64,000 nt of DNA from an uncultured Gammaproteobacteria bacterium (GTDB lineage Bacteria > Pseudomonadota > Gammaproteobacteria > Arenicellales > UBA868), in contig CAJQRU010000111.1 of assembly GCA_905612355.1 (NCBI GenBank), positions 1,690 through 65,689 of the forward strand. Direction: 5' to 3'. A model generated the notes under the pieces. The model saw nothing but the letters and a program-made list of their open reading frames with translations. It was not told the DNA's origin and did no database searches. Made by a program: the position numbers and the translations under genes. Of this stretch, positions 19,043-63,575 are shown piece by piece. Numbering within the stretch: the stretch's first letter is position 1; every line of letters begins with the position of its first letter.

Positions 19043-19687
19043 TGAGAATGACTCAGGCAGATTGGTTATGGGTCATCGGCTATCGCGCCATAACCCACGT
19101 CCTCTACCTGCGTGGCTGTGGCGGAATATGGGTTTGAATCGAATTCAAACGTGAAGGGGAAGTCATGCTGAAACAGCCTGGGATAGGAGGCTAGTTGATG
19201 TCCAGTTTGGTACATGAGCGCGCGCTTTATTGATGATTTCGTGTCGTTTTCGTCTACGTGCACCGGACTACAGAGCAGACGTGATGGGTTTTGACAGGTT
19301 GGCCGAGCTGTTTTGGCGATCGTTGCAACCGGTGACGGCTAGTTAGGCGGTTGTGGTCATCGATTAGTTAAGTGCTCTTTTGTCGTTGGGTCAACGCTAG
19401 AGATATTACGTTAATTTCTCTATGGTTTGGCGTTGAGCGCTTGCTATACGTGAATGAAGTTGATCCATTGGTAGGGGAGAATTCGGCGCGTATGGGTAAT
19501 AGGTGTTGACGCTTCGGTAGGGCCTTCTGGTTGCTGATTAGTATGTGAAAGCCTGATGTCTCACAGAGAACACGTGACAAAATAATCAGAGCGGTAGTGC
19601 CATGGGTGTCCGCACGTAACCTTAGGTTAGGATGAATGACAGTTAGAGATATCCGTTGGGTCGAGGTATTCGTTTCTTATCGAGCAT

Positions 19688-20317: not shown

Positions 20318-20571
20318 ATTAAGCACGGGTGCCGGGCGAAATGACAAATATTGACCCTAATGGGGTATGGGTGATAAGACAAAATATGCGATTGAATCTA
20401 CGGGCATTGTATCAATCCAGAGATACAACGGGATTCACTCAATAATAAGGATTATCAGAACAGTGTGGGCGAGACAAAAGAAGTGGGTGGATGGGTTGGT
20501 TTGCTTGTGTGTTTGTTTGTGCTGCGTACCGCGTTATGTCATCTTGATTTTATCAACACGGAGAAAATGTT

Positions 20572-47516: not shown

Positions 47517-49937
47517 ATGAACAGCTTATTAAAAAAACAGATTCGCAAATTCTTGGACGCTCATGGACCGTTGCCACCTGAAATGAAGCCCCTCGTCGCC
47601 GAGATTGACGCGACATACCAATCGCACGAAGACGCCTTGGTAGCATTGGCTGGCTTTCAAGAGATCGAAGCGGCATTGGCCGCGGCCAAGCTGGAGGCTG
47701 ATGCAGCCAACGAAGCGAAGAGCGAATTTCTCGCCAACATGAGTCATGAGATTAGAACCCCGATGAATGCGGTGATCGGGCTTGCCGGTCTCGCACTCAA
47801 GACCGATCTAGATGAACAACAGCGTGATTACCTCGAGAAGATCAGCCTGTCCGGCAAGGCACTACTGCAGATCATTAATGACATTCTGGATCACTCTAAG
47901 ATCGAGGCCGGGCGGCTTGAAACCGAGGAAATTGAGTTCGGTATTGAAGAGTTGCTGGTAAACCTCACCAGCATGGTCGCCACACGGGCCCAGGCCAAGC
48001 GATTGGAGTTTCTGTTTTCAATTGCGCCAGACGTGCCGGCGCAGTTGATAGGTGACCCGCTGCGCATTGGCCAGGTATTGACGAACCTGGTGGGTAACGC
48101 AATCAAGTTCACGGAAGCGGGTGAGGTTGTGCTCGCTATTAAGATGGTAGAGCGTAAATCAGACACGGTACAACTCGAGCTCTCGGTGTCCGACAGCGGT
48201 ATTGGCATGACACCTGAAGAGAGCAGTTTTCTATTTCAGGCATTTACCCAAGCCGACAGTTCCATCACGCGGCGTTACGGCGGCACTGGGCTGGGCCTTT
48301 CCATCTCCAAGGACCTGTTGTTACTGCTCAATAGCAACATCGAGGTCGAGAGCGAACGTGGCAAAGGTAGTCGTTTCTTTTTTCAGTTGCATTTGGGTGT
48401 TGCGCCGGAAACGGATGCGATCACGACCCCGCTGTCGCTGGCGGCCTTGGGTGTTCGTCGAGCGATGGTCGTGGATGATAACGGCCCATCGCGTGATTTG
48501 TTGAGTGCGATGCTGCGTGCGATGCAAATCGACGTTGTCAGCGCCGACTCGGGTGAGGCCGCGTTAGCGATGTTGGATACTGCTGGGAATAATGCTGATG
48601 ACACGGTGGACGTTGTCGTAATGGATTGGTTGATGACGGGCATGGACGGCATCGAAACCCTGGAGGCGATACGCCAACAAGGGGCCAGCGGGCAAGCGCC
48701 GACGGTGATCCTCGTGACAGCCTATGGCCTCGAAGAGGTGCGCGCACGATCGAAGCGGGCGGGCGTCAATGGGCTGCTGCAAAAACCAATTACTCCGTTG
48801 GCTTTGTTTAATGCGATTGCGAAGACACGGCCGGAATTTGCTGGCACGATTACTGAAGTGGTAGCGCTATCTGATGCTGAGCGTTATACGCTGACCGGTC
48901 TTCGAGTATTGCTGGTAGATGACAACAGCATCAACCAGCAGGTGGCCGGTGAACTGCTGCGCGGCGCTGGCGTTGAGGTGGATGTGGCGAATAACGGGCT
49001 CCAAGCGGTAGCGGCGGTGTCAAAGAAGCGTTATGCCGCCGTGTTCATGGATCTGCAGATGCCGGAACTCGATGGTTATGGTGCAACGCGCAGAATTCGC
49101 GATGAACTGGTAAGTAAAGTACCGATTATTGCCATGACCGCGCATGCGATGGAGAGTGAGCGGGCGAAGTGCCTCGAGGCTGGCATGAATGAACACATTG
49201 CCAAACCAATTGAGCCCGACCGACTGTTCTCGGTGCTCGAGACACTGGCGGATCGTTCGGCGCCGACGGCCGAGATCGTTCCGAACGATAAGGCGTTACC
49301 GACTGAGACGGCAGTTTTACCGAATGCATTGCCGGGGCTGGATATCGCCGACGGTGTGCGCCGCGTCGGTGGTAACCGGCAGTTGTATCTGACGATCTTG
49401 ACTCAGTTTCTCGATGACTATGCTGATGGCGCTGAGCGGATGGGATTATTTCTTGCCGACGGTCGTAACGAAGACGCGGAACGGCTTGCGCATACGCTAA
49501 AAGGAGTCGGTGGTAGCATCGGCGCGGCGACGCTGCAGGGATGTGCGGCAACCATCGAGAGCGCGCTGCGCTCTGGTACTGCACCTGGGGCGGACGCGGT
49601 GACGGGGTTCGAAAAGGCACTCACGGAAGTACTCGCCGCGGTGGGCGAGCTCACTGCTGTATCCAGTGACGCTAAGCCGACGGAACACGCAGGCACATCA
49701 ATGGATAAGGCGACGGTGATGGCGCACCTTGATGGACTTTCACAAGCCCTGGAGCAGTTCGATCACCGCGCCGTTCAATTGATTCAGACCGTGCGGCCCG
49801 CCCTGGTAGAGGCTGGCCTTGGCGCATTAATCGAGAAGATGGCCAATGAGGTCAGTGATTTCGAGTTTGAAGCGGCCGCGGTCACATTAAATACAGTGAT
49901 TGAAACGCTCGACAACCCCGCACCAGGTAACGATTGA
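47517..49937 (+). CDS. hybrid sensor histidine kinase (HisKA-HATPase-REC-REC-Hpt) without recognisable sensor or TM domain
   Basis: 806 aa. H-box [18 protein letters not shown] boxes [10 protein letters not shown] and [12 protein letters not shown]1 [11 protein letters not shown]...[13 protein letters not shown] and REC2 [11 protein letters not shown]...[12 protein letters not shown]. Hpt motif [13 protein letters not shown]. Confidence 0.9.
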
Positions 49938-50043: not shown

Positions 50044-52170
50044 ATGTCCTCGATTGACAATACGGTAAAGCGACGCGTCCTTGTCGTCGATGATGAACGG
50101 GCCTACCTGACGATTGTGTCGATGACACTGTCGGAAGAGGGCTATGACATCAATGTGGCCAAGAACGGCGAAACTGCGCTGAAGATCTGCCGCTCTGACA
50201 ATCCCCCCGACGTCGTATTGTTGGATATCAACATGCCCGAGATGGATGGTTACGAGGTCTGCAGTGCACTTAAGGCAGATGCCGCAACGCGCGATATCCC
50301 GGTGATCTTTCTGACGGCGCGTAACGAAGAAGGTGATGAGGAGCGTGGCATTGAACTCGGTGCGGTCGATTACCTGGTCAAACCATTTTCCGTACCGTTG
50401 CTGAAGGCACGGGTGGCAACACACAGTCAGCACCCGCAGGCGGTTGCGGCGAGTGCGATCAGCGGTCCACTAAGCATTGGCGATACATTGCTTCAGGCTG
50501 GACTGATTAGTCGGGCCGATCTCGATCGCGCGCTGACTGAGCAGCAGGAAAACCCGGGCCTGCGCCTCGCCGATATCCTGGTCGAGAAACGAATCGTCAA
50601 CGAAGACGACATGACGCGCATTATTGCGGAACGTTTCGGTTTCGAATTTGTTGATCTCACAAAGACCGAACCAGATCCGGCAGCCTTTTCGGAACTCCCT
50701 GCACGCTTGGTGAGAGAATTTAACGCGTTGCCGATTGCCACCGACGAGGACACGGTAACGGTTGCGATGGCCGATCCTTTATCCGGTGATGCCCTTGAGG
50801 CCATCCGCTTTGCTAGTAAGAAACGGGTCATCACGGTGGCGGTTTCGCCGAGTCGAGTGGGGCGCATCATTGCCGACGGCGGCGCAGCACATGAGTCCGA
50901 TACCGAATTCGATGCTTTCGTTGCCGGTCTCATGCGCGACCGGGAGACGGACGTTGATGAAATGGAGGTTGACCCCGAATTACAGGGTGCAATGCGATTG
51001 GTTAACCGCATCATCCTGGATGCCATCAAACAGAACGCCTCCGATATTCATTTTGAGTCGGGTGGAGAATCCGAACGCATGATCGTGCGTTTTCGCCGGG
51101 ACGGGACCTTGAGCGACTATCGCTCGATTCCCCCGGCCTACAAGGACCAGATGCTCGCGCGGCTCAAGATCATGGGCAGCATGGACACTGCCAACCGCCG
51201 TGCCTTCCAGGACGGCAAGGTGCGTTTCAAGGCAGGTAACGAAGATCGCGACCTGAGGTTGGTCAGCCTGCCAACGGCCGATGACAACGAAGACATCGTG
51301 ATGCGCATCCTGGAGCGCGAGAGTGCCTTCCCGCTCAATCTACTCGCACTCAGTGACAAGAACCTGGCACAGTTAACCCCCCTGATTGAACAACCCTATG
51401 GAATGATTCTGGCCGTGGGTCCGACAGGTTCGGGTAAGACCACCACGCTGCACGCGATGATCGGTCATATCAATACCCGTGAGCGCAAGATCTGGACGAT
51501 CGAGGACCCGGTCGAGATCAGGCAGCCGGGGCTGCGCCAATTGCAGGTCGTGCGCGAGGTCGATGTTACCTTTCAGAGCGCGATGCGTTCTTTCCTGAGG
51601 GCGGACCCCGACGTCATCATGGTCGGTGAGATGCGCGATGTGGAGACCGCGTCGATGGCGATTGAAGCATCACTCACAGGCCATCTATTGCTGTCCACGC
51701 TGCACACCAACAGCGCGCCCGAGACCATCATACGACTGATTGACATGGGCATGGAGCCATTCGCCTTCTCTGATGCATTACTGGGTATTCTGGCCCAGCG
51801 TCTGGTCAAGCGTCTATGCGGTAAATGTCGTGAGGACTACGCTGCATCGGATGCGGAGCGCGAAGAGTTTGTCCGTTACCTTGGCGAGGAGCGTTTATCG
51901 AAGTTGACTCGCAGTGAGGGGCTGCGCCTGTCGCGTGCGCCGGGCTGCCAGGACTGCGAATACACCGGTTATGATGGCCGCGTGGCCCTGCACGAGCTGC
52001 TGGTGGTGAACGACGAGATCCGCCAGGCCATCCAGGAGCGTGACTCTTCGGCTGCGGTCAGGACGTTGGCGCAGGCAGCCGGCATGGTAACTTTAATCGA
52101 AGACGGTGCAATCAAATGCCTGGATGGATTAACCGATATCGCGCAGGTAGTATCTGCCTGCGGCACTTGA
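50044..52170 (+). CDS. response-regulator receiver fused to GspE/PilB-family secretion ATPase (REC-MshEN-like N domain-ATPase)
   Basis: 708 aa. REC: VLVVDDERAY...VLLDINMPEMDG...K. N-domain SIGDTLLQAGLISRADLDRALTEQ. Walker A GPTGSGKTTTL, MVGEMRD, LSTLHTN, and the CGKC...CQDC tetracysteine. Confidence 0.9.
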   Translation: MSSIDNTVKRRVLVVDDERAYLTIVSMTLSEEGYDINVAKNGETALKICRSDNPPDVVLLDINMPEMDGYEVCSALKADAATRDIPVIFLTARNEEGDEERGIELGAVDYLVKPFSVPLLKARVATHSQHPQAVAASAISGPLSIGDTLLQAGLISRADLDRALTEQQENPGLRLADILVEKRIVNEDDMTRIIAERFGFEFVDLTKTEPDPAAFSELPARLVREFNALPIATDEDTVTVAMADPLSGDALEAIRFASKKRVITVAVSPSRVGRIIADGGAAHESDTEFDAFVAGLMRDRETDVDEMEVDPELQGAMRLVNRIILDAIKQNASDIHFESGGESERMIVRFRRDGTLSDYRSIPPAYKDQMLARLKIMGSMDTANRRAFQDGKVRFKAGNEDRDLRLVSLPTADDNEDIVMRILERESAFPLNLLALSDKNLAQLTPLIEQPYGMILAVGPTGSGKTTTLHAMIGHINTRERKIWTIEDPVEIRQPGLRQLQVVREVDVTFQSAMRSFLRADPDVIMVGEMRDVETASMAIEASLTGHLLLSTLHTNSAPETIIRLIDMGMEPFAFSDALLGILAQRLVKRLCGKCREDYAASDAEREEFVRYLGEERLSKLTRSEGLRLSRAPGCQDCEYTGYDGRVALHELLVVNDEIRQAIQERDSSAAVRTLAQAAGMVTLIEDGAIKCLDGLTDIAQVVSACGT

Positions 52171-52218: not shown

Positions 52219-54099
52219 ATGGATAAAGCCGGTCAAAAAGGATTCACGTTGCTTGAGATTATGGTGACGGTAGCGATTGTGGGCATATTGGCGGCGATCG
52301 CGATTCCCCTTTACAACAGTTACGTGACCAAGGCGAGGATTGCTGACAGCTTATCGAATGCTCGGGCGTATGCGGGCAAGGTGACGATAGACAGGGCAGA
52401 GCCTATAGCAGCGCCGTCTGGTTTTGATTATTCGAAGATTGAGTTAGCGGGTTCTCAGGCACAGCCGCGGATTCGGATCAACTTAACAACCGAAATTGAC
52501 AGTACGGTTTTGATGAATCCGGATGAGCGCGCTGGTACATATGTGATCGTGCTAAGTGAAGAGCAGACCGATGCGACGACGCGCTGGGGGTGCACGACCA
52601 ATTTGCCGAAGGCATTAATCCCTGAGGATTGTGCTTATGAATCGGGTGTTAAGGATAGGAAACTGCCGGACGAGTGGGTTAAGGGTGAAGATGCGTGCTG
52701 GAGTAATGCGCGTGCGAACAAGACTGGGAATGGCTGGTCGATAGGAGGTTGTACCGATTGCAACCAGCCCACAGTGCAAAGGAACGTAGCCCAAGGTGGG
52801 TATCGTCCGGGGGCCGCAAATGCCTATGGGCTTGGTTGCGCTGGTCTTTATGGGGGTGATGTGCCTCTCGTGGTTGCCCCGACTCAAGGCCCATCTACCG
52901 AGGATCCTTCGTCGACCGCGAGTGTCGGCGCTCTAACGAGCAGTGGCGGCTCCCCCAAAACAGCAGTAGCGGGCCTCCAACCAGCAGTAGGCGGCCCTCA
53001 AACCAGCAGTAGCGGCCCTCAAACCAGCAGTAGCGGCCCTCAAACCAGCAGTAGCGGTGGTGATAAAGCCGACGAAGCTGAAGCCGACAAAGCAACCCCA
53101 GAAATAACCGACAAAGCTGAAGCCGACAAAGCAACCCCAGAAATAACCGACAAAGCTGAAGCCGACAAAGATGAACCCGCCAGAGTAGCCGAGAAGTGTG
53201 TACCGAGAGGCGCCCCAGTCCCTGAAAGTGGTGGCGGTGGTGGTGATAGCGGTAAAGCCGACAAAGCAGAAAAAAAGGCAACTAAAGCAGAAAAAAAGGC
53301 AGCTAAAGAAGAAAAAAAGGCAGCTAAAGAAGAAAAAAAGCCAGCTAAAGCTGAAGAAGAGCCAGCTAAAGCAGAAGAAGAGGAATGCGAACTGACCAAA
53401 GAAGAAACCGCCGCGAAAAAGGCAGTTAAAGCAGAAAAAAAGGCAGCTAAAGCCGCCGCCAAACAAGCCGAAGAAGAAGCCGAAGAAGCCGAAGCCGCCA
53501 GAGTAGCCGACCTGAGCCCCGAAGAACGGGAAAGAGAAGCGGCATGGAACCTCAAAGTGCAAAACGAAGAGACGGAAGGATCCCTTTGGGCGGACGTACC
53601 AAACCATGCGCGTTGTGGAAAGAAATACTGCAATTTGTACGACTATGGGTTTAGGTCCGGAACACGCGGAGACCTAGAAGGGCCCGACATACTGGCCGTT
53701 ACTGTGTGTTGGAGTGACGCTGTTTCACAGGCCTCGCTCAAGGCCGAAGGAGATGGAGACGGATGGGTGATAGGACCAAACGCCGTACAATCACACCAGC
53801 AATCACGTATGAAGGAATGGGCGGATGACTTCCAACGACAGCAGCGGAAGTTTATGGAGTGCGCAGATGCTAATCCGCAGACCATTATAGTAGGGCGCTC
53901 ACGGTCAGGCATCGCAGAGTATTTGGATCCAGCAAATGCGTCAGCGGCTGGCGGGACGAGCTGCGGTCTTACCATATACTATCAATACGCCGGCATGACC
54001 TCCTCCGAGACCTCACTAGGCACTAGACACTTTAGCGATATTATATGGCGAGAGGGCACCCATTACTGCAACGCGCGTGCAGGGGGAGACGGGACTTAG
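52219..54099 (+). CDS. type IV pilin-like protein with ~480-aa repetitive C-terminal extension
   Basis: Prepilin leader MDKAGQKG|FTLLEIMVTVAIVGILAAIAIPLY. A PilA-like head ends in the disulfide loop WGCTTNLPKALIPEDC. Then come GPQTSSS x3, DKAEADKATPEIT x2, six 21-bp K/E/A heptad repeats and a Cys-containing C-terminal domain. Confidence 0.8.
   Translation: MDKAGQKGFTLLEIMVTVAIVGILAAIAIPLYNSYVTKARIADSLSNARAYAGKVTIDRAEPIAAPSGFDYSKIELAGSQAQPRIRINLTTEIDSTVLMNPDERAGTYVIVLSEEQTDATTRWGCTTNLPKALIPEDCAYESGVKDRKLPDEWVKGEDACWSNARANKTGNGWSIGGCTDCNQPTVQRNVAQGGYRPGAANAYGLGCAGLYGGDVPLVVAPTQGPSTEDPSSTASVGALTSSGGSPKTAVAGLQPAVGGPQTSSSGPQTSSSGPQTSSSGGDKADEAEADKATPEITDKAEADKATPEITDKAEADKDEPARVAEKCVPRGAPVPESGGGGGDSGKADKAEKKATKAEKKAAKEEKKAAKEEKKPAKAEEEPAKAEEEECELTKEETAAKKAVKAEKKAAKAAAKQAEEEAEEAEAARVADLSPEEREREAAWNLKVQNEETEGSLWADVPNHARCGKKYCNLYDYGFRSGTRGDLEGPDILAVTVCWSDAVSQASLKAEGDGDGWVIGPNAVQSHQQSRMKEWADDFQRQQRKFMECADANPQTIIVGRSRSGIAEYLDPANASAAGGTSCGLTIYYQYAGMTSSETSLGTRHFSDIIWREGTHYCNARAGGDGT
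52993..53055 (+). repeat. 21-bp in-frame tandem repeat x3 (GPQTSSS)
   Basis: GGCCCTCAAACCAGCAGTAGC appears three times perfectly, preceded by two degenerate units. Confidence 0.9.
53077..53170 (+). repeat. 39-bp in-frame tandem repeat x2.4 (AEADKATPEITDK)
   Basis: GCTGAAGCCGACAAAGCAACCCCAGAAATAACCGACAAA repeated. Confidence 0.9.
53263..53388 (+). repeat. 21-bp in-frame tandem repeat x6 (K-A/E-E-K-K-A-A heptads, with A7 runs)
   Basis: Units of the AAAGCAGAAAAAAAGGCA(A/G)CT type. Confidence 0.85.
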
Positions 54100-54234: not shown

Positions 54235-55170
54235 TTATGGAATCCCCAATCGCCTGAGGATGTAAATGTAGTAGCGGTTTACGCCTCCCTTGCGAGTGAC
54301 TAACCCACTCAGTCCTCCGTGCAGCCATCGGTGCCAGTGGATCGCGTACTCCCAGAGGCGTTGTTTATCACCCCCTTGCTCATAAAGCCGGCGGGCACGT
54401 GCCACAAAGCGCTGTAGGCTGACAGATGAGGGGCGTAGTCTGCGCTGTGGGTGAATGGTGTATCCCAGAAAATCAAAGCCGTTATCGGTTTTACCGATAA
54501 AGCACTTGGTCTTGCGGTGTAAGCGCAGTTTCAGACCTGTTGTTATCTTGAATATCTGCGCTATGGCCTTTCTAAGATGCCACCGGGTTGTGGCCAGAAT
54601 GACGAAGTCATCCATATAGCGGACATAGACCAACCGTTTGTCCTTGGCCATCTGCTGATCCAGAGGATTGAGATAAAGACCGCCCAGAATCGGTGACAGA
54701 CTGCCCCCTGCCGTCATGCCTTTCCCTAGATGGAGTCTGTCCGGCAGAGCAAGGTAATCGGTAACGACTGTCTTAAGATCACACCCAACATTGGCTTGTC
54801 TTAATGATTCAAGTAATAAGCCATGATGCAGTGACTCATAGTAGGCAACGACATCAAAGCGGGCCACATAAGCATATCGGTCTACCACCCGATGAAGATC
54901 ACGAACAGCACCCTTAACCCCTCCGTGGCCTTTTAAGTGCTTACAACGCTTGCTGAGAGTAGGTCTTAAGTCATGGCGCAGAAGATTAAATGCGGTTCTT
55001 TGGATAACGCGACTCTCAGGGCACCACTTGGCGAACCAGTGCCCGTTGTCACGCCACAGGCCCACCAGACGCAAATGTTTGCCCGCGACTGCGCGCCGGG
55101 CGGCCACAAGTGGACATGACTGTCGCGGCCAATCGGGTAGGATACGTGATCTAACTTCAGGATTCCCCAC
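54235..55170 (-). CDS. reverse transcriptase (RNA-directed DNA polymerase), stand-alone; 5' end uncertain
   Basis: RT motifs: ARFDVVAYYESL (motif A Asp), GGSLSPILGGLYLNPLD, YVRYMDDFVILA (YxDD), LKLRLHRKTK and FDFLGYTI, plus a thumb-like tail RFVARARRLYEQG. The track ORF runs to TTG 55350, but that part is antisense to a well-supported + strand gene. GTG 55170 is the first start that does not overlap that gene. Confidence 0.7.
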   Translation of the reverse strand: MGNPEVRSRILPDWPRQSCPLVAARRAVAGKHLRLVGLWRDNGHWFAKWCPESRVIQRTAFNLLRHDLRPTLSKRCKHLKGHGGVKGAVRDLHRVVDRYAYVARFDVVAYYESLHHGLLLESLRQANVGCDLKTVVTDYLALPDRLHLGKGMTAGGSLSPILGGLYLNPLDQQMAKDKRLVYVRYMDDFVILATTRWHLRKAIAQIFKITTGLKLRLHRKTKCFIGKTDNGFDFLGYTIHPQRRLRPSSVSLQRFVARARRLYEQGGDKQRLWEYAIHWHRWLHGGLSGLVTRKGGVNRYYIYILRRLGIP

Positions 55171-55182
55171 GAGGAGACGAGG

Positions 55183-55464
55183 ATGAAGGTCTACAGAATC
55201 AGCCACTTCACTGTGCTCGATCAAGACAAACTGGCCCAGACACTCGATGACATGCGCGCGAGTTTTGCAGATCGCACTGGCGCAGAATTCATTGATTTTA
55301 TCTGTGATGCCGAGGGCAACGGGATGGCGGTTGCTCGCTATCCAGATCAAGAGGCAATGGATGCCGCGGCGCCGTACTCAAAGCTGGGCTTCGACAGGCT
55401 GATCGAGGCGGGGTCGGTCGAATTTGTCGAGCCTTGGTCCGGCGAGGTCTTGGTGTCGCTTTAA
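55183..55464 (+). CDS. small ABM/ferredoxin-like-fold protein (antibiotic biosynthesis monooxygenase-like)
   Basis: 93 aa. The ATG is preceded by GAGGAGACGAGG (Shine-Dalgarno). The pattern is beta-alpha-beta-beta: VYRISHFTV...AEFIDFICDAEGNGMAVARYPDQEAMDAA. A hairpin follows at 55471-55488. Confidence 0.6.
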   Translation: MKVYRISHFTVLDQDKLAQTLDDMRASFADRTGAEFIDFICDAEGNGMAVARYPDQEAMDAAAPYSKLGFDRLIEAGSVEFVEPWSGEVLVSL

Positions 55465-55506
55465 AGAGACGCTCAGCCTTACCTGAGCAAATCCGTTAGC
55501 CGCCGG

Positions 55507-57891
55507 TCAGCGTTTGCGACCCGCAAAGACACCGCCCGCCTGGTATCGATCGCCGGTGATGCGAAAATGGCCACCCATCTCAGGGGGGCTGTCTCCAGCA
55601 GATGCCCCGTGGCCGAAAAAGTAGCCGCTGGCTCTTAGCGTGTGGGTTTTTTCAGTGTCGTGAGCCCAGGACGCCGAAGTACTCTTCACGTTGAAGGGTG
55701 CAGCATTGCCGGTGGGAGCGCTGACTCCACGAAAGCGCCGCCCGTCAAAGGAAGCATCGAAGGCCTTCACCTGGTAGTGGGTCGTGCCGAAGCGCACGCG
55801 CGCATCGAAACTCCCGCGGCGCTCAACGATCGAACCCGCACGCAGCACCCCGCCCAGCATAGCGCCCGAATAGGTAGCGCTTTTGTCTGCGGCGGCCGCA
55901 AGTTCTGCCGCGGTCGCGGCTGCACCGGCGAGCCAGTAGCGCAAGCCGCTGGTATCTGCAGTACCGCCGGCAAGGGTCTCTCGTCCCCACGCGAGGAAGC
56001 GGCACGCCGTGCACGGCCGGCGAGCCAGCTTGGGCAGGCTGCCGGTTAGTCTGCCGCTAACCGTGGTCTCAATACGGGCGCCGCCATCGACTGACCACGT
56101 CCATAACGCAACAACGCCGGCCGGCAGGCGAGTCTCGCACGTAGACACCTCCGAATCGCATTCTTCGGCTTCAGACTTGGCTTCCTTTTTTGCTGCTTTC
56201 TTTTCTTTCTTTGCTGCTTTCTTTTCTTTCTTTGCTGCTTTCTTTTCTTTCTTTGCTTTTTTTGCTTCCTTTTTTTCTGCTTTAGCTTCTTGTTTTTCTG
56301 CTTTAGCTTCCTTTTTTTCTGCTTTAGCTTCCTTTTTCTCTGCTTTAGCTTCCTTTTTTGCGGCCTTAGTGGGTTTGGTAATGATCAGTGCGGTCGTTGA
56401 ACTTCCCGAGGACCCAACTTCGATCACGCTGTCACAATCTCCGGCTGAACCGCAACGAATCGATGCCTCGCCGGTAATCGGATCGATTGTTACCGAGATC
56501 GGTGCATCAGTGCCGGAATCCCCCTTGGTGCTTGATTGCCCCTCCTGGATAGTGCTACTGATTTGTTTGCGGTTGCTAATGCTGTTGGCTATAACAAGTC
56601 CCGTGCCAGTGCCACTGTCATCAACGGTCGCACGCCCAAGCGCACGAATACGCTTTGTGGCGGCGCGCAACTCCTGCCGTGCGATTTTGTCTTCTTTCCT
56701 TGTTACGCGCAGCTGTTTCTTGGCTGCAGTATTATTGGCGCGGGCAGTCCGTAAGGCGGTTGTCTGCTCCCGGCGGTGCTTGCGGGCCTCTTTCTTTGTT
56801 TGGTTGGCTGCGCTTCGCTCCCGCAGCGCGGTCTTGAGATCCGATCGGTCGGAGCGGCGGACTTGCCGGGCTTGTCGCAGTGCTTCTTTGGCCGCCTTTA
56901 GTGCGGCTTTCCCTTTGGGACCTGGGATGCCTTTTGCTGCATCGACTCGCGCCTTGGCAGCTCTAAGCGTCTCACCCCTGGCTTTTTTATCTGACTTAGC
57001 GCCTTTTTTGTCCTGACCCACTTGTTGTCGCTGCGCTCGTTTTTCTTTCGCTTCTTTCTGCGCAGCTTTTTGATCCTCCCTTGCTTCTTGTACGGCTTCT
57101 TTAGCCGCCGCGACTTCGGCTTTCGCTCCCGCGCGGGCGTCGGCGGTTTGTTGTTTGTTCTCGGTTGCGGCCAGAAGACTGTCTGCGGTGCTCTGGGTCA
57201 CGGGTTTGCGTTCAAAAGCGCCGACCAGTCGCGTGAGATCGATTGAACTTCGATGTTGTGACGGCAACGGAATGGCATTAGCCCCCATCACCGAGATGAA
57301 GCGGCCCGCCTGAGTCGTGCGCTGGGTCTTGCCGCCAGAGGTGACGGTCAACTCATCACCATATAGAAGGTCTGCCGTCAGTGCCCCGTCTTCGCTCAGC
57401 TCAAGCAGTACAATCCCGCCACGGACGCCCACCGTTGCGTTCGGGGCCAGAAACTTGATCGGGGTCTTTTTCGATATCTTTCCACCCACCAGGCGGAAAA
57501 AGCCCTTGGAGATACTGACGGTCATGGCACCGGTGCCCGCCTTGGGGTCATAGATGTATTCGTCAATGACAAGATCAGAGGTCGGGCCCACCGTCAGCGC
57601 AGTGCCATCCTCGAACAACAACTGGGCACGACCGACTTGATTGGTCGAGACTTTCTCTGAGAAGAATACGCCAACGCCGGTCTTGAGTTCTCTTGCCGGT
57701 GAAATAGGCGGTTTGCCGATCGCCTTGAGGTTGGTGGCCGTGGCGACGGCGACCTGAGTTTCAGGCATCGCTGCCTTGGCAGGGGATGCGAGCCCTAGCA
57801 ATAGCATTAGTGTGAACGCGCTTGCCCCACTGAGGACGATCAAGCGACTCGCGCAAGAGAGACATTTGTTGTCCGACGGCTTTGTCAGCAT
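55507..57891 (-). CDS. secreted FecR-domain protein with Lys/Ala/Glu/Arg-rich stalk and TbpB-like C-terminal beta-barrel domain
   Basis: Signal peptide ...LMLLLGLASPAKA. FecR-like region GRAQLLFEDGTALTVGPTSDLVIDEY. About 300 aa of charged coiled coil includes EAKAEKK x4 and KKEKKAA x3. C-terminus ATYSGAMLGG...GSFDARVRFG...GYFFGHGASAGDSPPEMGGHFRI...GGVFAGRKR matches the TbpB/Slam-cargo barrel pattern. Confidence 0.75.
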   Translation of the reverse strand: MLTKPSDNKCLSCASRLIVLSGASAFTLMLLLGLASPAKAAMPETQVAVATATNLKAIGKPPISPARELKTGVGVFFSEKVSTNQVGRAQLLFEDGTALTVGPTSDLVIDEYIYDPKAGTGAMTVSISKGFFRLVGGKISKKTPIKFLAPNATVGVRGGIVLLELSEDGALTADLLYGDELTVTSGGKTQRTTQAGRFISVMGANAIPLPSQHRSSIDLTRLVGAFERKPVTQSTADSLLAATENKQQTADARAGAKAEVAAAKEAVQEAREDQKAAQKEAKEKRAQRQQVGQDKKGAKSDKKARGETLRAAKARVDAAKGIPGPKGKAALKAAKEALRQARQVRRSDRSDLKTALRERSAANQTKKEARKHRREQTTALRTARANNTAAKKQLRVTRKEDKIARQELRAATKRIRALGRATVDDSGTGTGLVIANSISNRKQISSTIQEGQSSTKGDSGTDAPISVTIDPITGEASIRCGSAGDCDSVIEVGSSGSSTTALIITKPTKAAKKEAKAEKKEAKAEKKEAKAEKQEAKAEKKEAKKAKKEKKAAKKEKKAAKKEKKAAKKEAKSEAEECDSEVSTCETRLPAGVVALWTWSVDGGARIETTVSGRLTGSLPKLARRPCTACRFLAWGRETLAGGTADTSGLRYWLAGAAATAAELAAAADKSATYSGAMLGGVLRAGSIVERRGSFDARVRFGTTHYQVKAFDASFDGRRFRGVSAPTGNAAPFNVKSTSASWAHDTEKTHTLRASGYFFGHGASAGDSPPEMGGHFRITGDRYQAGGVFAGRKR
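56191..56362 (-). repeat. two families of 21-bp in-frame tandem repeats (KKEKKAA x3; EAKAEKK x4)
   Basis: The plus strand shows TGCTGCTTTCTTTTCTTTCTT x3, then CTGCTTTAGCTTCCTTTTTTT-type units x4, with T6-T7 runs. Confidence 0.85.
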
Positions 57892-58182
57892 GGAACCAGG
57901 ACCATAGAAGTCGTTGTTAAGCCACCACGGGAAAGCTCGGTAGAGCAAAGTTTACCGCGACGGGCAGTCTTGCGTATTGAAGACGGGTCAGTTTTGGGTC
58001 GCTTCAGCCGATCGAAGCAGCGACCGATGTGATCTTGATCACCGCGCCGACCATTAATCGGTATTTGTTCTCGATTATTGTGACGACGCGCACATTAGTT
58101 TAGAGCGTGTTGATGAAAGATAGCTCCCGTCGTGGACGGTATCGCGGTCAATTCAAGTCACATCACAACGGAGAATTTAGAC

Positions 58183-59637
58183 ATGAAAACGATCCCCAAA
58201 ATGCTTTTGACGGCCGCGTTGGCACTCAGCGCGAGCGTGGTCACGCCGTCAACGTATGCGGCAGAATTGCCTCCGGCCGCCGCTCGTAGCCCGATCGTGG
58301 TGTATCCACAGTTGGCTACCCGCAGCGCCGGTGCCAACGTGAGCAGTGCACTCCTGGAACGCCTGCGTGAGTTACGCATCTTAAGGGTGCTGGTCGGTCT
58401 TGATCTGAAACATACGCCCAGTCATCGATTGAGCGAGGTCGAGAGCATTCGCCAGCGTGCTGACCTGATGGCGATGCAGGACGCCCTGATCAAGCGTACC
58501 TTCGGCGCACGTCAAGATGGCGTGATTGCCCGCTTTGAAGATATTCCCTACCTGACATTAGAGGTGTCGGAGCACCAACTAAGACGCCTGTTGACTGATC
58601 CGAACGTGCATTCTGTACAGGAAGACGGGCTGGCCGCTCCCATGCTCAGGGAAAGTACCAAGCTGATCCGTGCCAAACGCGTGTGGGGCCCAAAGTTCGA
58701 ATTGCGCGGTAAAGGCCAGACCATTGCCATTCTCGATACCGGTAGCAATCACCCGAAGATGCTGAAAAAGAATCGCATCGTGGCCGGGGGTTGTTACTCA
58801 TCGAACCATCCTGGTTACGGCTCGAAGTCCCTCTGCCCCGGTGGTGTCGAAGTCAAGAACAATGCGGCAGCCGGCAAGAACTGCCCGGAATCCATTGCCG
58901 GTTGTGACCATGGAACGCACGTGGCCACGATCGCCGCTGGCAACAGTGGCAAGCTCAAAGGCGTTGCGCGAGAGGCGAATATTATTCGTATGCAGGTGTT
59001 CAGCCAGTTCAACAGCAGTGTTTATTGTGGACGTTCGGTACCTTGCATCATGTCATTCACATCAGACCAGGTTAAGGCACTGGAGCGCATCTACAAATTG
59101 CGCAAGAAACACCATATTGCGGCGGTCAATCTGAGCATAGGCAGTGGAAATTACGCAAGCTACTGTGATGGCAACCAGCCGGCAATGACTGAGATTATTG
59201 ATCGCCTGACCGACGCCGGTGTGGCGGTGGTGGTGGCAGGAGGCAACAGCAACATTCCGACGTACGCGTTTGGTTACACCAGTTTTCCCGCGTGCATCAA
59301 GAATGCGATTGCTGTTGGCAACACCACAAAGACTGATGGCGTATCGGTTTTCTCAAGTCATTCCGATCTCATTGACCTGTTGGCACCCGGGGAGAATATC
59401 TACGCCGGTCTCCCGGGTCGCCGCTATGGCACCAAGAGCGGTACCTCGATGGCAGCGCCCCACGTGGCGGGCGCCATCGCGCTGCTGAAGGGCTATCGGC
59501 CTAAAGCCACGGTAACCGAATTAGTCACGGCGCTTAAGTGCAGCGGCGACTTGCTCTCTGCCGCAGGCATTGCTAAGCCTCGAGTGGATGTGCGCAAAGC
59601 CTACCGTTTCTTAAAAAAGAACAGAACGAGTTGTTAA
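58183..59637 (+). CDS. subtilisin-like serine protease (peptidase S8), secreted
   Basis: Signal peptide MKTIPKMLLTAALALSASVVTPSTYA. Catalytic triad motifs AILDTGS, HGTHVATIAAG and GTSMAAPHVAG. Confidence 0.9.
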   Translation: MKTIPKMLLTAALALSASVVTPSTYAAELPPAAARSPIVVYPQLATRSAGANVSSALLERLRELRILRVLVGLDLKHTPSHRLSEVESIRQRADLMAMQDALIKRTFGARQDGVIARFEDIPYLTLEVSEHQLRRLLTDPNVHSVQEDGLAAPMLRESTKLIRAKRVWGPKFELRGKGQTIAILDTGSNHPKMLKKNRIVAGGCYSSNHPGYGSKSLCPGGVEVKNNAAAGKNCPESIAGCDHGTHVATIAAGNSGKLKGVAREANIIRMQVFSQFNSSVYCGRSVPCIMSFTSDQVKALERIYKLRKKHHIAAVNLSIGSGNYASYCDGNQPAMTEIIDRLTDAGVAVVVAGGNSNIPTYAFGYTSFPACIKNAIAVGNTTKTDGVSVFSSHSDLIDLLAPGENIYAGLPGRRYGTKSGTSMAAPHVAGAIALLKGYRPKATVTELVTALKCSGDLLSAAGIAKPRVDVRKAYRFLKKNRTSC

Positions 59638-59782
59638 TCTAAGGTGAACGCGTGCCCGGGCATTGATGTACCGGGCGCGCACTCAAGGCTGCGGTAGTTT
59701 CAGCCAGTGTGAGATTTGGTATTTGAGGGGCTGGGTGGCGACAATAGCGCCGGGGATTCGATCCCCCCCAAGACTATCGCCA

Positions 59783-62002
59783 ATGACCAACCGACTTCAC
59801 ACTCTAACTTCGAACTGGACTCGGTTGATCCCGTTCTTGCTGCTATTGCTGGCGCTGGCGATCAGAGCCTATGAACCGGCGCTGGTGACGCAACTGCGCC
59901 TGGCGATATTCGATCAGTACCAGTCCATCAAGCCGAGGGAGTTCACGCCGCTACCAGTGCGTATTGTTGATATCGATGAAGAGAGCCTTAAGCGCCTCGG
60001 CCAGTGGCCCTGGCCGCGCGATATTCTGGCGCAGGTGGTGTCGCGTGCCGCGCAAGCCGGGGCCGCCGTCGTGGTGCTCGACGTGCTCCTCGCCGAGCCC
60101 GATCGCCTTTCACCATCGAATTGGCTGCGCCTGTTACCCACCGGGAGCGAATATGAACAGTTGCGCAAGGCCCTGGCGGCCCAGCCAAGCCCGGACCAGG
60201 TACTGGCGGATAGCCTTGGCAGTGCCGATGCGGTGGTTGGTTTCGCTTTGACTGCGAAGGCGGGTACCAGTGGGCCAAGGCCCCCGGCATTGAAAGGGGG
60301 CTATGCGGAGGCGGGGGATCCTTCGGGTCCGTTTATGTTGGCATTCGGTGGTCACGTGCCGGCGTTGGCAGCGTTGCAGGCAACCGCCGGTGGCTACGGC
60401 GCGTTGAGTCTGGTGCCCGATGCCGACGGTGTTGTCCGGCGCGCGCCCCTGTTTGTTACGGTAGCAGACCAGGTGGTGCCCTCGATTGATGCCGAAGCGT
60501 TGCGGGTCGCGCAGGGCGCATCGACCTATGTTGTTAAGTCGACCAACGCCAGCGGTGAGGCGAGCTGGGGCGGTGCCGGTGGTGTAGTCAGTGCGCGGAT
60601 TGGCGCGTTGACCGTGCCGACTGACCGCCATGGGCGCGTGTGGATACGTTATGCCGCAGAGCTGGCAACACCAGTACCGGTCTGGCAACTGCTGAATGGG
60701 AATGTCGATCCGGCGTCGCTCGCCGGTCACATTGTGTTGCTTGGCTCCACGGCCGCGGGTCTCGCACGCCCCCAACCGACGCCGCTCGGTACGATGGCCT
60801 CGGCTATTCAGATTCGGGCACAGCTGCTCGAGACGCTCATCAGTGAGGATTTTCTTAAGCGCCCGGACTGGGCCAATGGTGCCGAGATTCTCCTGGCATT
60901 AATGCTGGGGTTAGCCTTGCTGTGGTTGTTGCCAAAATGGGGTCCGTTGTGGTGTGCACTCATCGCATTGGCCGCCGTGGGTAGCGCCATTGGCGGCTCG
61001 TGGCTGGCGTTTGCACACCAGGGTTTGCTGCTCGATCCGGCGTATTTTTCCTTCGTGATTCTGGTGGTGTACCTCGCGCAATCGCTTAAGGTGTATTTCT
61101 CGAGCGAAAGCGAGAGACGCTATGTGCGCAGCGCGTTCTCACGTTATCTTTCTCCCGCTTTAGTCGAAGACCTGGCGCGCGATCCCGCTCGCTTGCGCCT
61201 GGGTGGCGAGACGCGCGATCTTTCAATCATGTTCTGCGACATTCGCGGCTTTACCAAGATCTCAGAGCGTTATTCCCCGCAAGACCTGACCCGTCTTATT
61301 AATCGCTTTCTGACACCCTTGACCCAGGCCATCCTCGATCGCAAGGGCACTATCGACAAGTACATGGGTGACTGCATCATGGCCTTCTGGAACGCGCCCA
61401 TCACAGTGCCCGGCCATGCCCGTGAGGCGTGTCACGCGGCGCTGGCCATGCTGGAGGCCCTGGCCGCACTAAACCGTGAACTCTCGGCCGAGGACGCGGA
61501 TAATCTGCGCATCGGCATCGGCATCAATACGGGCAGTGCACTGGTGGGGAATCTCGGGTCCGAACAGCGCTTTGATTATTCGGTCCTCGGCGATGCCGTC
61601 AATCTGGCCTCGCGCCTTGAAGGTCAATCGAAGACTTACGGAGTGGATGTGCTGCTCAACGAGAACGTTGTTGACTCAGCACCTGCCATGGCAACACTGG
61701 AACTCGACCTGGTGCAGGTCGTCGGCAAGTCTGAACCCGCCCGCATTTTTACGCTGCTGGGCAACGAGACGCTTGCCGCATCCGCTGCCTTCCAGACATT
61801 GCGAGCGGACCAAGCCAGGATGCTAGGTGCCTACCGTGCGCGCGAATGGGATATGGCCTGTCAGGTGCTCGATCAACTTCGCCAATCGGGGTGGGACGCC
61901 TTGGATGGATATTTCACGATGTTTCGCGAACGAGTGCAAACGTTCAAAGTATCGCCGCCAGGCAGTGATTGGGATGGCGTGGAACGGCGCTTGAGTAAAT
62001 AG
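59783..62002 (+). CDS. CHASE2-domain membrane sensor fused to class III adenylate/guanylate cyclase
   Basis: CHASE2 hallmark VRIVDIDEESLKRLGQWPWPRD. TM helices follow the periplasmic domain. Cyclase motifs LSIMFCDIRGFT, DKYMGDCIMAFWNAP and GINTGSALVGNLGS. Confidence 0.9.
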   Translation: MTNRLHTLTSNWTRLIPFLLLLLALAIRAYEPALVTQLRLAIFDQYQSIKPREFTPLPVRIVDIDEESLKRLGQWPWPRDILAQVVSRAAQAGAAVVVLDVLLAEPDRLSPSNWLRLLPTGSEYEQLRKALAAQPSPDQVLADSLGSADAVVGFALTAKAGTSGPRPPALKGGYAEAGDPSGPFMLAFGGHVPALAALQATAGGYGALSLVPDADGVVRRAPLFVTVADQVVPSIDAEALRVAQGASTYVVKSTNASGEASWGGAGGVVSARIGALTVPTDRHGRVWIRYAAELATPVPVWQLLNGNVDPASLAGHIVLLGSTAAGLARPQPTPLGTMASAIQIRAQLLETLISEDFLKRPDWANGAEILLALMLGLALLWLLPKWGPLWCALIALAAVGSAIGGSWLAFAHQGLLLDPAYFSFVILVVYLAQSLKVYFSSESERRYVRSAFSRYLSPALVEDLARDPARLRLGGETRDLSIMFCDIRGFTKISERYSPQDLTRLINRFLTPLTQAILDRKGTIDKYMGDCIMAFWNAPITVPGHAREACHAALAMLEALAALNRELSAEDADNLRIGIGINTGSALVGNLGSEQRFDYSVLGDAVNLASRLEGQSKTYGVDVLLNENVVDSAPAMATLELDLVQVVGKSEPARIFTLLGNETLAASAAFQTLRADQARMLGAYRAREWDMACQVLDQLRQSGWDALDGYFTMFRERVQTFKVSPPGSDWDGVERRLSK

Positions 62003-62026
62003 GCGTGCAGCTGCTGGCGTGCCGAT

Positions 62027-63409
62027 TTAGAAGCGACCCATTAACCCGATGTTGGTGACCCAGTTCTCATTAGCAAAGTTCGGCAGATTGGAGTCCACTT
62101 CGCTGTAACCGACAGACACCATCAACGCGAGCGTCGCCGACATGGGTATCGACAGATTGGCACCGACCCTGATGGTGGTGTCCGACCGGCGGGTATCGGG
62201 ATCGACGGTGGGTGTGGCCGCGTCGTAATCCCGGCCGTAAAGCCCAAGGGACAGTGCCGTCGTCCAGGCTTGCTTGATGGCGCCAAATGGCGACGCGAAA
62301 CCGCGCTGCAAGGTGCCGGAGACACCGTGTTCCCAGTGAGAAGACGCCGCGTCATTGGTGTGCTCATTAAAACTGCTGATGCCAATCGTGGCCGCCGTTG
62401 TCTCTGATAGGGACAGACGCCTGGTAAGATCGATGCGGCTACGTAGGCCGTCAAGCGCGGACTGGCCACTACCGTCGTGCTCGCGATCCTCGATTCTGAC
62501 GGCGAATTGCCAGTCACCGCGTTGTTGGGATTGGTAACCCACACTGATACCGCCGCCTAAACTGCGGAACGTATCGATCCCGTCAAGGGCCAGCCGGTTC
62601 GCCACGAGGTAGGGGCGAATATCGAGTGACTCTCTTGGCTTGGGTGCCAAGCCAAGGTGCAAGCCACTTTGCAGTTCATAGAGCCGAGTGTTGAGCTGTT
62701 TCTGCGTGTCTTGTCGGTTGGCGTAGAGGGACAGGGTGGTCTCGAGTTTGAGGGCAGGATCCCGGTCGAAGTTATAGACGTGACTGATCTGGCCGGTGAG
62801 GTAGCCATCGGAGTCACTCTGCTGCGTGTACTGGTCATCCAGTACGGCCGTGTTGCCGAATAGTAAGATTTCGTTGCTGCCAGGACCACTGTTGGCATTG
62901 CTCTGGTAACGGATGCCACTCAACAGGGTGCCGGTGAGGTGGTGCGCGGAAGTGAGTGCATTGATCTTTACAAGCATCGTTTCTGCGTCAGCAATAACAT
63001 CGGCGGGTGCTTCAGGGTGTTTAATGACTTCGGACAGGTAAGTCTGTGCCATCGCGTAGGACTTGATCTGAAAATAGAGTGCACCAAGGCGCAGCCTGAT
63101 CTGGGGCAGGCCAGGATCAATGATCAACATTCTCTCAAGTGCCGCCAAGGCACCTTCGATGTCACCGATCTGAATAGCTAACTCGGCAAAATGAAACGTT
63201 TTGTCGAGGTTGCTTGCATCTTTGTACATCGTTCGAAACGCTTCATCGTAGCGTTGCTGGGGGGTGGGCGCTTCCTCGGCGATGAGCGGTAACGAGATAA
63301 GGCTAATCACAGCGAAACCCAACACCATGGTTAATCGAATAATTAAACAATGAGTCACCCGGTATGGGTAAGGGTTCGAGTCAACCTTTGCCATCGTCGA
63401 TTGACGCAT
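62027..63409 (-). CDS. TPR + DUF560 outer-membrane beta-barrel protein (Slam / type XI secretion-like)
   Basis: After the signal peptide comes an N-terminal TPR-like region (QRYDEAFRTMY...ALAALERMLIIDPGLPQIRLRLGALYFQIKSY). Then ~330 aa of amphipathic beta strands (LTGTLLSGIRYQSNANSGPG...) end in ...NIGLMGRF. The start is uncertain (63409, 63394 or the 63481 track start). Confidence 0.7.
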   Translation of the reverse strand: MRQSTMAKVDSNPYPYRVTHCLIIRLTMVLGFAVISLISLPLIAEEAPTPQQRYDEAFRTMYKDASNLDKTFHFAELAIQIGDIEGALAALERMLIIDPGLPQIRLRLGALYFQIKSYAMAQTYLSEVIKHPEAPADVIADAETMLVKINALTSAHHLTGTLLSGIRYQSNANSGPGSNEILLFGNTAVLDDQYTQQSDSDGYLTGQISHVYNFDRDPALKLETTLSLYANRQDTQKQLNTRLYELQSGLHLGLAPKPRESLDIRPYLVANRLALDGIDTFRSLGGGISVGYQSQQRGDWQFAVRIEDREHDGSGQSALDGLRSRIDLTRRLSLSETTAATIGISSFNEHTNDAASSHWEHGVSGTLQRGFASPFGAIKQAWTTALSLGLYGRDYDAATPTVDPDTRRSDTTIRVGANLSIPMSATLALMVSVGYSEVDSNLPNFANENWVTNIGLMGRF

Positions 63410-63575
63410 TACTCTCCCTAGGCCTCGTCGGTGAGGGTTGAGCGTATCCAGAAGAGCCGAGCTACACCAGCTTCTCCACACATTGCTAAAGGGTCCAGTA
63501 TTGCGGCCATATTGGCATGATCATGTCCTTCATAGCTGATGAAACGAGCGTTGCAATAACGGGTCATGGTCAATG

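Follow-up and report, generated by a model that had tools for sequence, protein, structure and literature searches.

A Slam-like outer-membrane protein, its candidate FecR-headed cargo and a neighbouring CHASE2 cyclase in an uncultured gammaproteobacterium

Introduction

What do four adjacent envelope genes of an uncultured gammaproteobacterium (Arenicellales) do, and do they act together? The genes lie at positions 55507-63481 of the window, the whole stretch of 64,000 nucleotides analysed here (contig CAJQRU010000111.1, assembly GCA_905612355.1). They encode a tetratricopeptide repeat (TPR) outer-membrane protein (OMP), a FecR-domain protein with a C-terminal barrel, an S8 protease and a CHASE2 cyclase. 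The original prediction took them as one module, in which a Slam-like type XI secretion system (T11SS) OMP exports the FecR protein, the protease processes it and the cyclase reports the event. In this study, we found that the OMP and FecR-barrel genes are a conserved pair with which a CHASE2 cyclase recurs, and that the protease is linked to them only in near-identical relatives. We consider it fairly probable that the OMP is of the T11SS type and exports a FecR-headed soluble cargo, and that the CHASE2 adenylate cyclase is the signalling partner.

It has been reported that DUF560 OMPs expose lipoproteins and also secrete soluble cargo that bears a type I signal peptide and only one TbpB-type barrel, and that a C-terminal barrel is a common feature of T11SS cargo, proposed as its secretion-targeting element (PMC8406197; PMC12282271; bioRxiv 10.1101/2023.03.29.534853). 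In nine of ten DUF560 sequence clusters the cargo is not known (PMC8406197).

Results

The OMP and FecR-barrel genes form a conserved pair

The list of open reading frames (ORFs) and their translations confirmed that all four genes are real, intact and placed as predicted:

55507-57948, minus strand: FecR-barrel gene, likely ATG at 57891, 794 aa
58132-59637, plus strand: S8 protease gene, ATG at 58183, 484 aa
59663-62002, plus strand: CHASE2 cyclase gene, likely ATG at 59783, 739 aa
62027-63481, minus strand: TPR-barrel OMP gene, start at 63409, 460 aa

The window proteins were scanned with Pfam at curated cut-offs, and the predicted FecR, S8, CHASE2 and class III cyclase assignments each scored above them.

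Species genomes, one per species, were scanned with a 9-sequence OMP alignment. At least 535 OMP relatives were found, and 79 loci were kept and searched for neighbours with profiles built from the window proteins. The hosts were uncultured marine Gammaproteobacteria (one at 97% identity), Arenicellales, Acidiferrobacter and many Alphaproteobacteria, including Reyranella, Ferrovibrio, Rhodopseudomonas palustris, Microvirga, Enhydrobacter and Oceanibacterium. A gene with the FecR N-terminal domain came directly next on the same strand in 53 of the 74 loci with at least 1.5 kb of sequence downstream of the OMP gene. The barrel stood at the extreme C-terminus of the same ORF in 47 of these 53 pairs, most of the others being cut by contig ends. 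These results show that the predicted neighbourhood of OMP and FecR-barrel genes is conserved as an adjacent pair.

Family size was taken from an exhaustive search with the barrel profile, as word-indexed protein searches gave few matches. It returned 1602 representative clusters, and for 694 of these the E value was 1e-10 or lower. In the top 146 clusters, the FecR domain stood at the N-terminus of 75 of the 99 proteins of at least 400 aa. The cargo family is thus large, with a fixed head (FecR), a fixed tail (barrel) and a variable middle.

The pairing also takes other forms. Tandem OMP-cargo pairs were found at four loci (L008, L027, L036 and L078) and two cargo genes behind one OMP at three (L032, L059 and L077); behind some OMPs a long cargo paralogue is accompanied by a short one of 415-617 aa. 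OMP genes without a FecR neighbour occur at L022, L024-L026, L029, L035, L038, L040, L041, L044, L048, L050-L052, L056, L063, L069, L074 and L081, many of them in a similar gene setting. At L056, the one such locus scanned, the neighbours encode an acyl-CoA dehydrogenase, a flavin oxidoreductase, a methyltransferase and ppiD. Clustering of the neighbouring ORFs gave no further conserved partner (chaperone, phosphodiesterase or regulator); the clusters held only antisense shadow ORFs and genes of lineage synteny (glycosyltransferase, SelB, UvrA).

The OMP resembles a divergent branch of the DUF560 superfamily

The OMP comprises a periplasmic and a barrel part, as judged from profile matches and an AlphaFold2 (AF2) model with its predicted local distance difference test (pLDDT) scores:

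62027-63409, minus strand: TPR plus 14-strand beta-barrel OMP, divergent and DUF560/Slam-like (mechanical ORF to 63481)
62951-63262, minus strand: periplasmic TPR region, residues about 50-153 of 460 (TPR_19 and TPR_9 matches; AF2 helices at 50-153)
62030-62944, minus strand: 14-strand barrel, residues about 156-460 (AF2, 14 long strands, pLDDT above 90)

At curated Pfam cut-offs the window OMP matched TPR families alone. A protein search gave 29 relatives, of which 28 were scanned singly. SlipAM (PF04575) matched 9 of the 28 at E 0.01 or better and TPR_Slam matched 11, all below the TPR_Slam cut-off. Five relatives (P0012, P0016, P0025, P0027 and P0029) scored above the PF04575 cut-off (24.8-30.7 bits vs 22). 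Against the window OMP, these five gave E values from 4.5e-57 to 9e-4, the best with 31% identity over 95% of its length. Because of this clear homology, the window OMP can be placed, with family-level support, in a divergent branch of the DUF560 superfamily that is probably Slam-like or T11SS-type. Because of the same divergence, Pfam-based surveys would miss the branch.

In the AF2 model of the OMP (pLDDT 88), residues 50-153 form TPR helices and residues 156-459 hold 14 long strands, and this modelled architecture is the one known from Slam and T11SS proteins. At its C-terminus (...GRF) the OMP has the typical terminal aromatic residue. The top Foldseek matches were the generic 14-strand barrels CymA, OmpG and FadL, and the TPR-barrel protein BcsC was also matched. 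Hence the DUF560-type barrel of the original prediction holds through the five relatives and the modelled TPR and 14 strands, but not through the window protein's own PF04575 score, which is below the cut-off.

The cargo ends in a predicted soluble barrel of the TbpB/NHBA type

The FecR protein comprises the following parts:

55507-57891, minus strand: secreted 794-aa protein, putative T11SS cargo (signal peptide, FecR-like N-terminal domain, charged stalk and C-terminal barrel)
57772-57891, minus strand: type I signal peptide, 40 aa, cleavage after AKA (by inspection)
57174-57783, minus strand: FecR-like N-terminal domain, about 200 aa (PF04773 and conservation)
56062-57173, minus strand: charged stalk with much Lys, Arg, Glu and Ala, KKEAKAE repeats and an insert rich in Ser, Thr and Gly (lineage-specific)
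55510-56061, minus strand: C-terminal handle and 8-strand TbpB_B_D/NHBA-type barrel, putative T11SS targeting domain (profile, AF2, Foldseek)

The motifs ATYSG, GYFFG, EMGGHF and GVFAGRKR, read earlier as a cargo-type barrel pattern, are all present in the cargo translation. We built an alignment, A3, of 52 C-terminal domains of FecR proteins encoded beside OMP homologues. Its profile matched NHBA (E 4.5e-7), with an alignment running to the ...VFAGKK end, and also fHbp, TbpB, LbpB and HpuA, all of which have the 8-strand barrel of Slam-dependent surface lipoproteins. Taken singly, 13 of the 52 A3 members matched TbpB_B_D (best E 1.7e-9) and 11 matched FHBP_C; the window cargo matched NCBIfam slam_lipo at E 0.09. 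When the last 209 aa were modelled with AF2, eight strands formed at residues 86-208, where confidence is moderate to good. Foldseek placed NHBA first (E 1.3e-4, probability 1.0, root-mean-square deviation (rmsd) 3.8), followed by the TbpB C-lobe, whole TbpB and the HpuA barrel, with probabilities of 0.97-1.0 for NHBA, TbpB and HpuA.

Eight strands could also make an OmpA/Ail-like membrane anchor. Foldseek gave the OmpA transmembrane domain (E 1.1e-2), Ail and NspA as well, and the counterpart in Campylobacterota has been termed an outer membrane protein (PMC9239204). However, the A3 sequence profile matched soluble Slam-cargo barrels only, with no OmpA, OmpX or Ail among its matches. The structural fit was also better to NHBA (rmsd 3.8, template-modelling score 0.52-0.65) than to OmpA (rmsd 7.2, score 0.43). 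The tails of the cargo family are polar (...FAGQK, ...FAGRKR), like ...VFAGKK of NHBA, and lack the final aromatic residue that the neighbouring OMP has (...GRF). In addition, hydrophobic residues alternate with heavily charged ones along the strands, as in SIVERRGSFDARVRF, which is expected of a soluble barrel with a hydrophobic core. A membrane anchor is therefore very improbable. The profile matches, the better fit to NHBA and the polar tails instead point, at the level of the family, to a soluble barrel homologous to Slam-cargo barrels. The predicted TbpB-like barrel is likewise upheld by the A3 profile, the 8-strand model and Foldseek, which agree, but not by the window protein's own PF01298 score.

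Just ahead of the barrel lies a near-invariant C-x2-C ... (Y/F)-L-x-W-G-x-W motif (window about 55960-56010, minus strand; A3 columns C27, C30, W35 and G36). It falls outside the Pfam TbpB_B_D model, was modelled with low confidence, and may form a disulfide, bind metal or be an element of the handle.

The cargo has a conserved FecR-like head and a variable linker

The FecR domain of the window cargo scored 30.9 bits with PF04773 (cut-off 24), and the N-terminal domain also matched NCBIfam Lsa33 (E 4.9e-6). When the profile of the FecR alignment A5 (46 loci) was searched against the PDB, the sole match was the N-terminal segment of an ice-binding adhesin (5ix9, E 1.6e-4), with no FecR or PupR structure. 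The cargo carries a type I signal peptide (...LASPAKA|AMPE, by inspection) instead of a lipobox, as predicted. The same is true of 51 of 53 relatives, which have an A-x-A cleavage site followed by a conserved (K/R)VGVT start. The features of FecR anti-sigma proteins, a cytoplasmic domain and a membrane anchor, are absent, and the mature cargo begins with the FecR domain after the cleaved signal peptide. Among the scanned neighbours from 42.5 to 63.5 kb, no sigma-factor or TonB-receptor domain was found.

The middle of the window cargo, about 370 aa, has 38% charged residues (Asp, Glu, Lys, Arg) and includes tandem 21-nt repeats at 56156-56386. The predicted charged stalk is therefore present here, but it is not a general feature: it is common only to the window cargo and an Acidiferrobacter relative. 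Linkers in the family range from 24 to 1169 aa (median near 508) and are mostly Gly/Ser/Thr-rich, and the middle regions of seven diverse members held no Pfam domain.

A predicted adenylate cyclase with a CHASE2 domain recurs beside the pair

The cyclase gene encodes a receptor with two recognised domains:

59783-62002, plus strand: CHASE2 receptor-class III cyclase fusion, predicted to make cyclic AMP (cAMP) (mechanical ORF from 59663)
59843-60913, plus strand: periplasmic CHASE2 domain (PF05226, ORF residues 61-417, E 5.4e-53)
61214-61654, plus strand: cyclase catalytic domain (PF00211 Guanylate_cyc, ORF residues 518-664, E 7.8e-22)

The catalytic domain was aligned to CyaB of P. aeruginosa and Cya2 of Synechocystis; both metal-binding Asp residues and the Asn/Arg pair are kept. 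At the base-specifying position the window cyclase has Lys (IDKYMGD). Wild-type Cya2, a guanylate cyclase, has Glu at this position, and its engineered adenylate cyclase form has Lys. By this precedent, the window enzyme is predicted to be an adenylate rather than a guanylate cyclase, with cAMP as its product.

The surveyed loci (about 1.2 Mb) contain 14 CHASE2 genes. Each of the 14 is fused to a cyclase and has an OMP-cargo pair within 1.3 kb, in several orders and orientations, in Gammaproteobacteria, Alphaproteobacteria and Immundisolibacterales. Such clustering is far more than chance would give for a gene with one or a few copies per genome, with the qualification that the loci are not phylogenetically independent. 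The predicted link between the CHASE2 cyclase and the pair thus extends over Alpha- and Gammaproteobacteria. On plasmid pAMI5 of Paracoccus aminophilus the order is OMP, FecR protein and cyclase, which RefSeq labels only as "tetratricopeptide repeat protein", "FecR domain-containing protein" and "adenylate/guanylate cyclase".

Genes with a cNMP-binding domain were found near only three loci. Beside the cyclase-containing module, L001 has a gene with cNMP_binding and TIR_2 domains (19530-21347), and L085, on pAMI5, has one for a cNMP-binding patatin-like phospholipase (5602-7428, minus strand). The third locus, L035, is weaker and has no FecR gene beside the OMP. The effector-type genes of L001 and L085 are possible readers of a cAMP signal. 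A Pycsar system was considered for the window and rejected: PADLOC PycC matched the catalytic domain alone (E 8e-30), as expected from generic class III homology, the window cyclase is a membrane receptor with a CHASE2 domain, and the window contains no effector gene.

The S8 protease is linked to the pair only in close relatives

58183-59637, plus strand: secreted subtilase (S8), lineage-specific neighbour and doubtful module member (Peptidase_S8 PF00082, E 3.7e-36)

By inspection, the protease has a type I signal peptide and the triad motifs for Asp (ILDTGS), His (HGTHVA) and Ser (GTSMAAPHV); its stop codon lies about 145 nt from the likely cyclase start. In the metagenome scan, its linkage to the module was limited to relatives of at least 90% identity (L005, L086-L088). 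Homologues at 41-50% identity (L090, L091) had a VWA-domain gene or unrelated neighbours, with neither CHASE2 nor FecR among them. The S8 protease was therefore rejected as a conserved module member, contrary to the original prediction, and the proposed processing step finds no support in the linkage. A co-occurrence of CHAT or S8 proteases with such genes in other phyla, raised in the original prediction, was not matched by any report in the searchable literature.

The S8-family protease NalP releases NHBA and LbpB from the Neisseria surface, cutting beside a basic stretch, which is a precedent for the protease idea. This analogy is the sole argument for a release step, and, unlike NalP, the S8 enzyme here has no autotransporter domain and no conserved linkage. 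The subtilase is probably an accessory of this lineage only and may trim the Lys/Arg-rich stalk.

Of the four genes taken as one module, then, the OMP-cargo pair and the recurrent CHASE2 cyclase hold together and the protease does not. It could also be that the pair, the cyclase and the protease are independent in this genome, brought together by chance or local rearrangement. Relatives have the OMP and cargo genes directly side by side, but the window has the S8 and cyclase genes between them, on the opposite strand. An IS-type integrase gene (rve, HTH_21; 43772-44686, minus strand) lies about 11 kb upstream, and a reverse transcriptase gene (54235-55350, minus strand) lies immediately 3' of the cargo gene. 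Their presence suggests that the region has been rearranged, which may explain the interposed genes. Most OMP-cargo loci lack an adjacent cyclase, and the S8 linkage is not conserved; both fit independence. Nevertheless, each of the 14 CHASE2 genes detected in the surveyed flanks adjoins the pair, with varied orders and orientations and in distant lineages, and clustering of FecR with CHASE2 appears in three independent papers (PMC5192318, PMC5498481, PMC9239204). We therefore regard independence of all these genes as distinctly unlikely.

Genes around the module

The reverse transcriptase matched PADLOC RT_UG4 over nearly its full length (E 1.7e-61) and resembled, below NCBIfam cut-offs, group II intron reverse transcriptases and Drt3a. 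A terminator-like hairpin (55470-55489) lies between this gene and the cargo gene. A diversity-generating retroelement was rejected, since no template/variable repeat pair was found near the reverse transcriptase and the enzyme is of the UG4 type. No structured RNA was found with Rfam at E 0.1 or better at 50-64 kb.

A gene at 52219-54099 (plus strand) encodes a 626-aa protein that combines a motif for prepilin N-methylation with a long stalk of Lys/Ala/Glu repeats, and whose C-terminus is Cys-rich. At the DNA level, the tract coding for these repeats (53254-53385) shows 77-86% complementarity to the KKEAKAE tract of the cargo gene (56245-56376), so that similar charged repeats occur in two neighbouring envelope proteins on opposite strands. 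Upstream of the 626-aa gene are genes for a fusion of a response regulator with an MshE-type ATPase (50044-52170) and for a hybrid histidine kinase (47517-49937).

In L005, the 97%-identical relative, a gene divergent from and upstream of the OMP gene (484-1086, minus strand) encodes a 200-aa lipoprotein (signal ...VAAC) with a HEVGH zinc-protease-like motif. It had no Pfam match and, judged by this motif, is possibly a second protease beside the module. Its equivalent in the window would lie from about 63820 onward and be cut by the window end.

Discussion

How might these proteins work together? In the reading we favour, the 794-aa protein would enter the periplasm via Sec and lose its type I signal peptide. 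The TPR plus 14-strand OMP would recognise its C-terminal TbpB/NHBA-like barrel and export it, as known T11SS proteins do with the soluble single-barrel proteins HphA (hemophilin) and HrpC. The functional end of the cargo would be its strongly conserved FecR-like N-terminal domain. The inner-membrane CHASE2 cyclase would be the signalling partner, with cAMP as predicted output; its periplasmic domain would most likely sense the FecR-domain protein, whether by its presence, its ligand state or its transit. We infer the export itself, the contact between FecR and CHASE2 and any proteolysis from this arrangement of genes and domains. A more tentative idea, which we hold to be possible though doubtful, is that CHASE2 has the FecR-like domain as its natural partner, or "ligand", and that the T11SS OMP sets where this partner is, so that export, surface capture or release sets cAMP.

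Several points weigh against export with CHASE2 signalling. By sequence, both key proteins of the window miss their families' cut-offs. The OMP scored 14.4 bits with SlipAM PF04575 as a whole protein and 16.1 bits as the barrel alone (cut-off 22), and the last 197 aa of the cargo scored 20.7 bits with TbpB_B_D PF01298 (E 6e-4, cut-off 26). By structure, the OMP fold match was to generic 14-strand barrels, with no Slam structure among the PDB matches of the sequence search or Foldseek. The cargo barrel model, made from a 16-sequence alignment, has a mean pLDDT of 65, with the first 65 residues unmodelled. By neighbourhood, about 19 OMP homologues have no FecR neighbour, and CHASE2 is adjacent in only about one fifth of the OMP-cargo loci. 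By mechanism, a fully exported FecR domain could not touch a periplasmic CHASE2 domain without a further step. In the operons of LysM-FecR proteins with CHASE2 kinases, the FecR protein is periplasmic (PMC5192318), and the S. meliloti FecR-domain gene smc02177 is dispensable for signal perception by CHASE2 cyclases (PMC5498481). Finally, our literature search found no experimental work on any family member.

The main alternative is a trans-envelope tether, similar to FecA-FecR. Here the FecR domain would stay in the periplasm on CHASE2 while the barrel is held in or at the Slam-like OMP, and outer-membrane events would reach the cyclase mechanically or via regulated proteolysis. FecR proteins that partner CHASE2 elsewhere are held in the periplasm by LysM (PMC5192318), which suggests that the anchor has been swapped and the FecR-CHASE2 contact kept. 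The FecR N-terminal domain is the most conserved part of the cargo (mean column identity 52% vs 30% for the barrel), as would fit a conserved internal partner. The OMP distances follow those of this domain closely (r = 0.86, mirror-tree); such correlations are dominated by shared ancestry, however, and do not discriminate between tether and export. In S. meliloti, the OMP NsrA is required for CHASE2 cyclases to sense an external protein (PMC7529298). On the other hand, linkers of 24-1169 aa, with some members of only 415-500 aa, are a poor fit to a fixed periplasmic spacer, and every tested T11SS exports its whole cargo (PMC8406197, PMC12282271). We consider the tether unlikely, although less so than the membrane anchor or the independence of the genes.

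The closest known systems to the favoured export reading are those of the soluble-cargo branch of T11SS, Xenorhabdus HrpB/HrpC and HsmA/HphA. As here, they have a periplasmic TPR and 14-strand DUF560-type barrel, an adjacent cargo gene, and a cargo that begins with a type I signal and a variable or functional N-terminal part and ends in one TbpB-like barrel of 8 strands (PMC8406197; bioRxiv 10.1101/2023.03.29.534853). Unlike them, the window OMP misses the PF04575 cut-off, the cargo N-terminus is FecR-like instead of a haem or metal binder, and the recurrent partner is a CHASE2 adenylate cyclase, with no TonB-dependent receptor adjacent. The hosts also differ, being mostly free-living marine, soil and freshwater Alpha- and Gammaproteobacteria. 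Neither FecR nor cyclases are mentioned in the T11SS cargo surveys. The lipoprotein cargo of Neisseria Slam1/Slam2 has a barrel homologous to the one here by profile and fold, with NHBA the best match in both, but the cargo here is not lipidated.

Pairs of an extracytoplasmic FecR protein and a CHASE2 receptor are known from the Burkholderia BiofilmReg operon, P. aeruginosa PA4035-36 and S. meliloti cyaD1-smc02177. In Burkholderia and P. aeruginosa, a LysM-FecR gene was reported next to that of a CHASE2 histidine kinase (PMC5192318), and smc02177 was reported to adjoin cyaD1 (PMC5498481). In contrast to the locus here, the Burkholderia system has histidine kinase output, LysM on the FecR protein and no OMP. 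A cAMP cluster described in Campylobacterota in 2022 contains a FecR protein, a TPR protein and a CHASE2 adenylate cyclase (PMC9239204). This would very probably be the same module. The three papers give no mechanism for the adjacency of FecR and CHASE2, and in them the TPR protein is not called Slam-like and the FecR tail is not called a T11SS cargo barrel.

FecA-FecR-FecI resembles the system here in that a PF04773 beta domain in the envelope passes outer-membrane information inward. It differs in that the cargo here has a cleaved signal peptide instead of a cytoplasmic anti-sigma domain or membrane anchor, no ECF (extracytoplasmic function) sigma factor or TonB-dependent transducer is adjacent, and the output would be cAMP. 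NsrA of S. meliloti, acting with CyaD1, CyaD2 and CyaK, is likewise an outer-membrane beta-barrel needed for a CHASE2 cyclase response to an external protein (PMC7529298, PMC13001267). Unlike the OMP here, NsrA has about 1200 aa and a far larger barrel, is not reported to be DUF560-like, and has no barrel-tailed FecR cargo implicated with it.

In the searchable literature we found no paper that joins DUF560 with FecR or ties the CHASE2/FecR/TPR cluster to T11SS; one paper that pairs the Slam name with FecR used FecR only as a gene-neighbourhood filter for iron-related neighbours. The cluster itself has been noticed before. What is new here is a divergent putative T11SS branch, a cargo class with a FecR head and a barrel tail, and a recurrent second-messenger partner.

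So far, the only roles known for T11SS are the capture of nutrients and adhesion, both in bacteria associated with hosts. The family described here would add a large new cargo class, with FecR head and barrel tail, found mainly in free-living Alpha- and Gammaproteobacteria, and it may have a role in signalling. The Campylobacterota cluster of a FecR outer membrane protein, a TPR protein and a CHASE2 cyclase could be reinterpreted in the same way. The neighbouring CHASE2 adenylate cyclase offers a concrete and testable candidate for what CHASE2 senses, a question that has stood open for two decades. If the FecR-like domain is indeed the partner of CHASE2 and its location is set by the OMP, the result would be a second-messenger pathway coupled to secretion, and T11SS would gain its first role in signalling.

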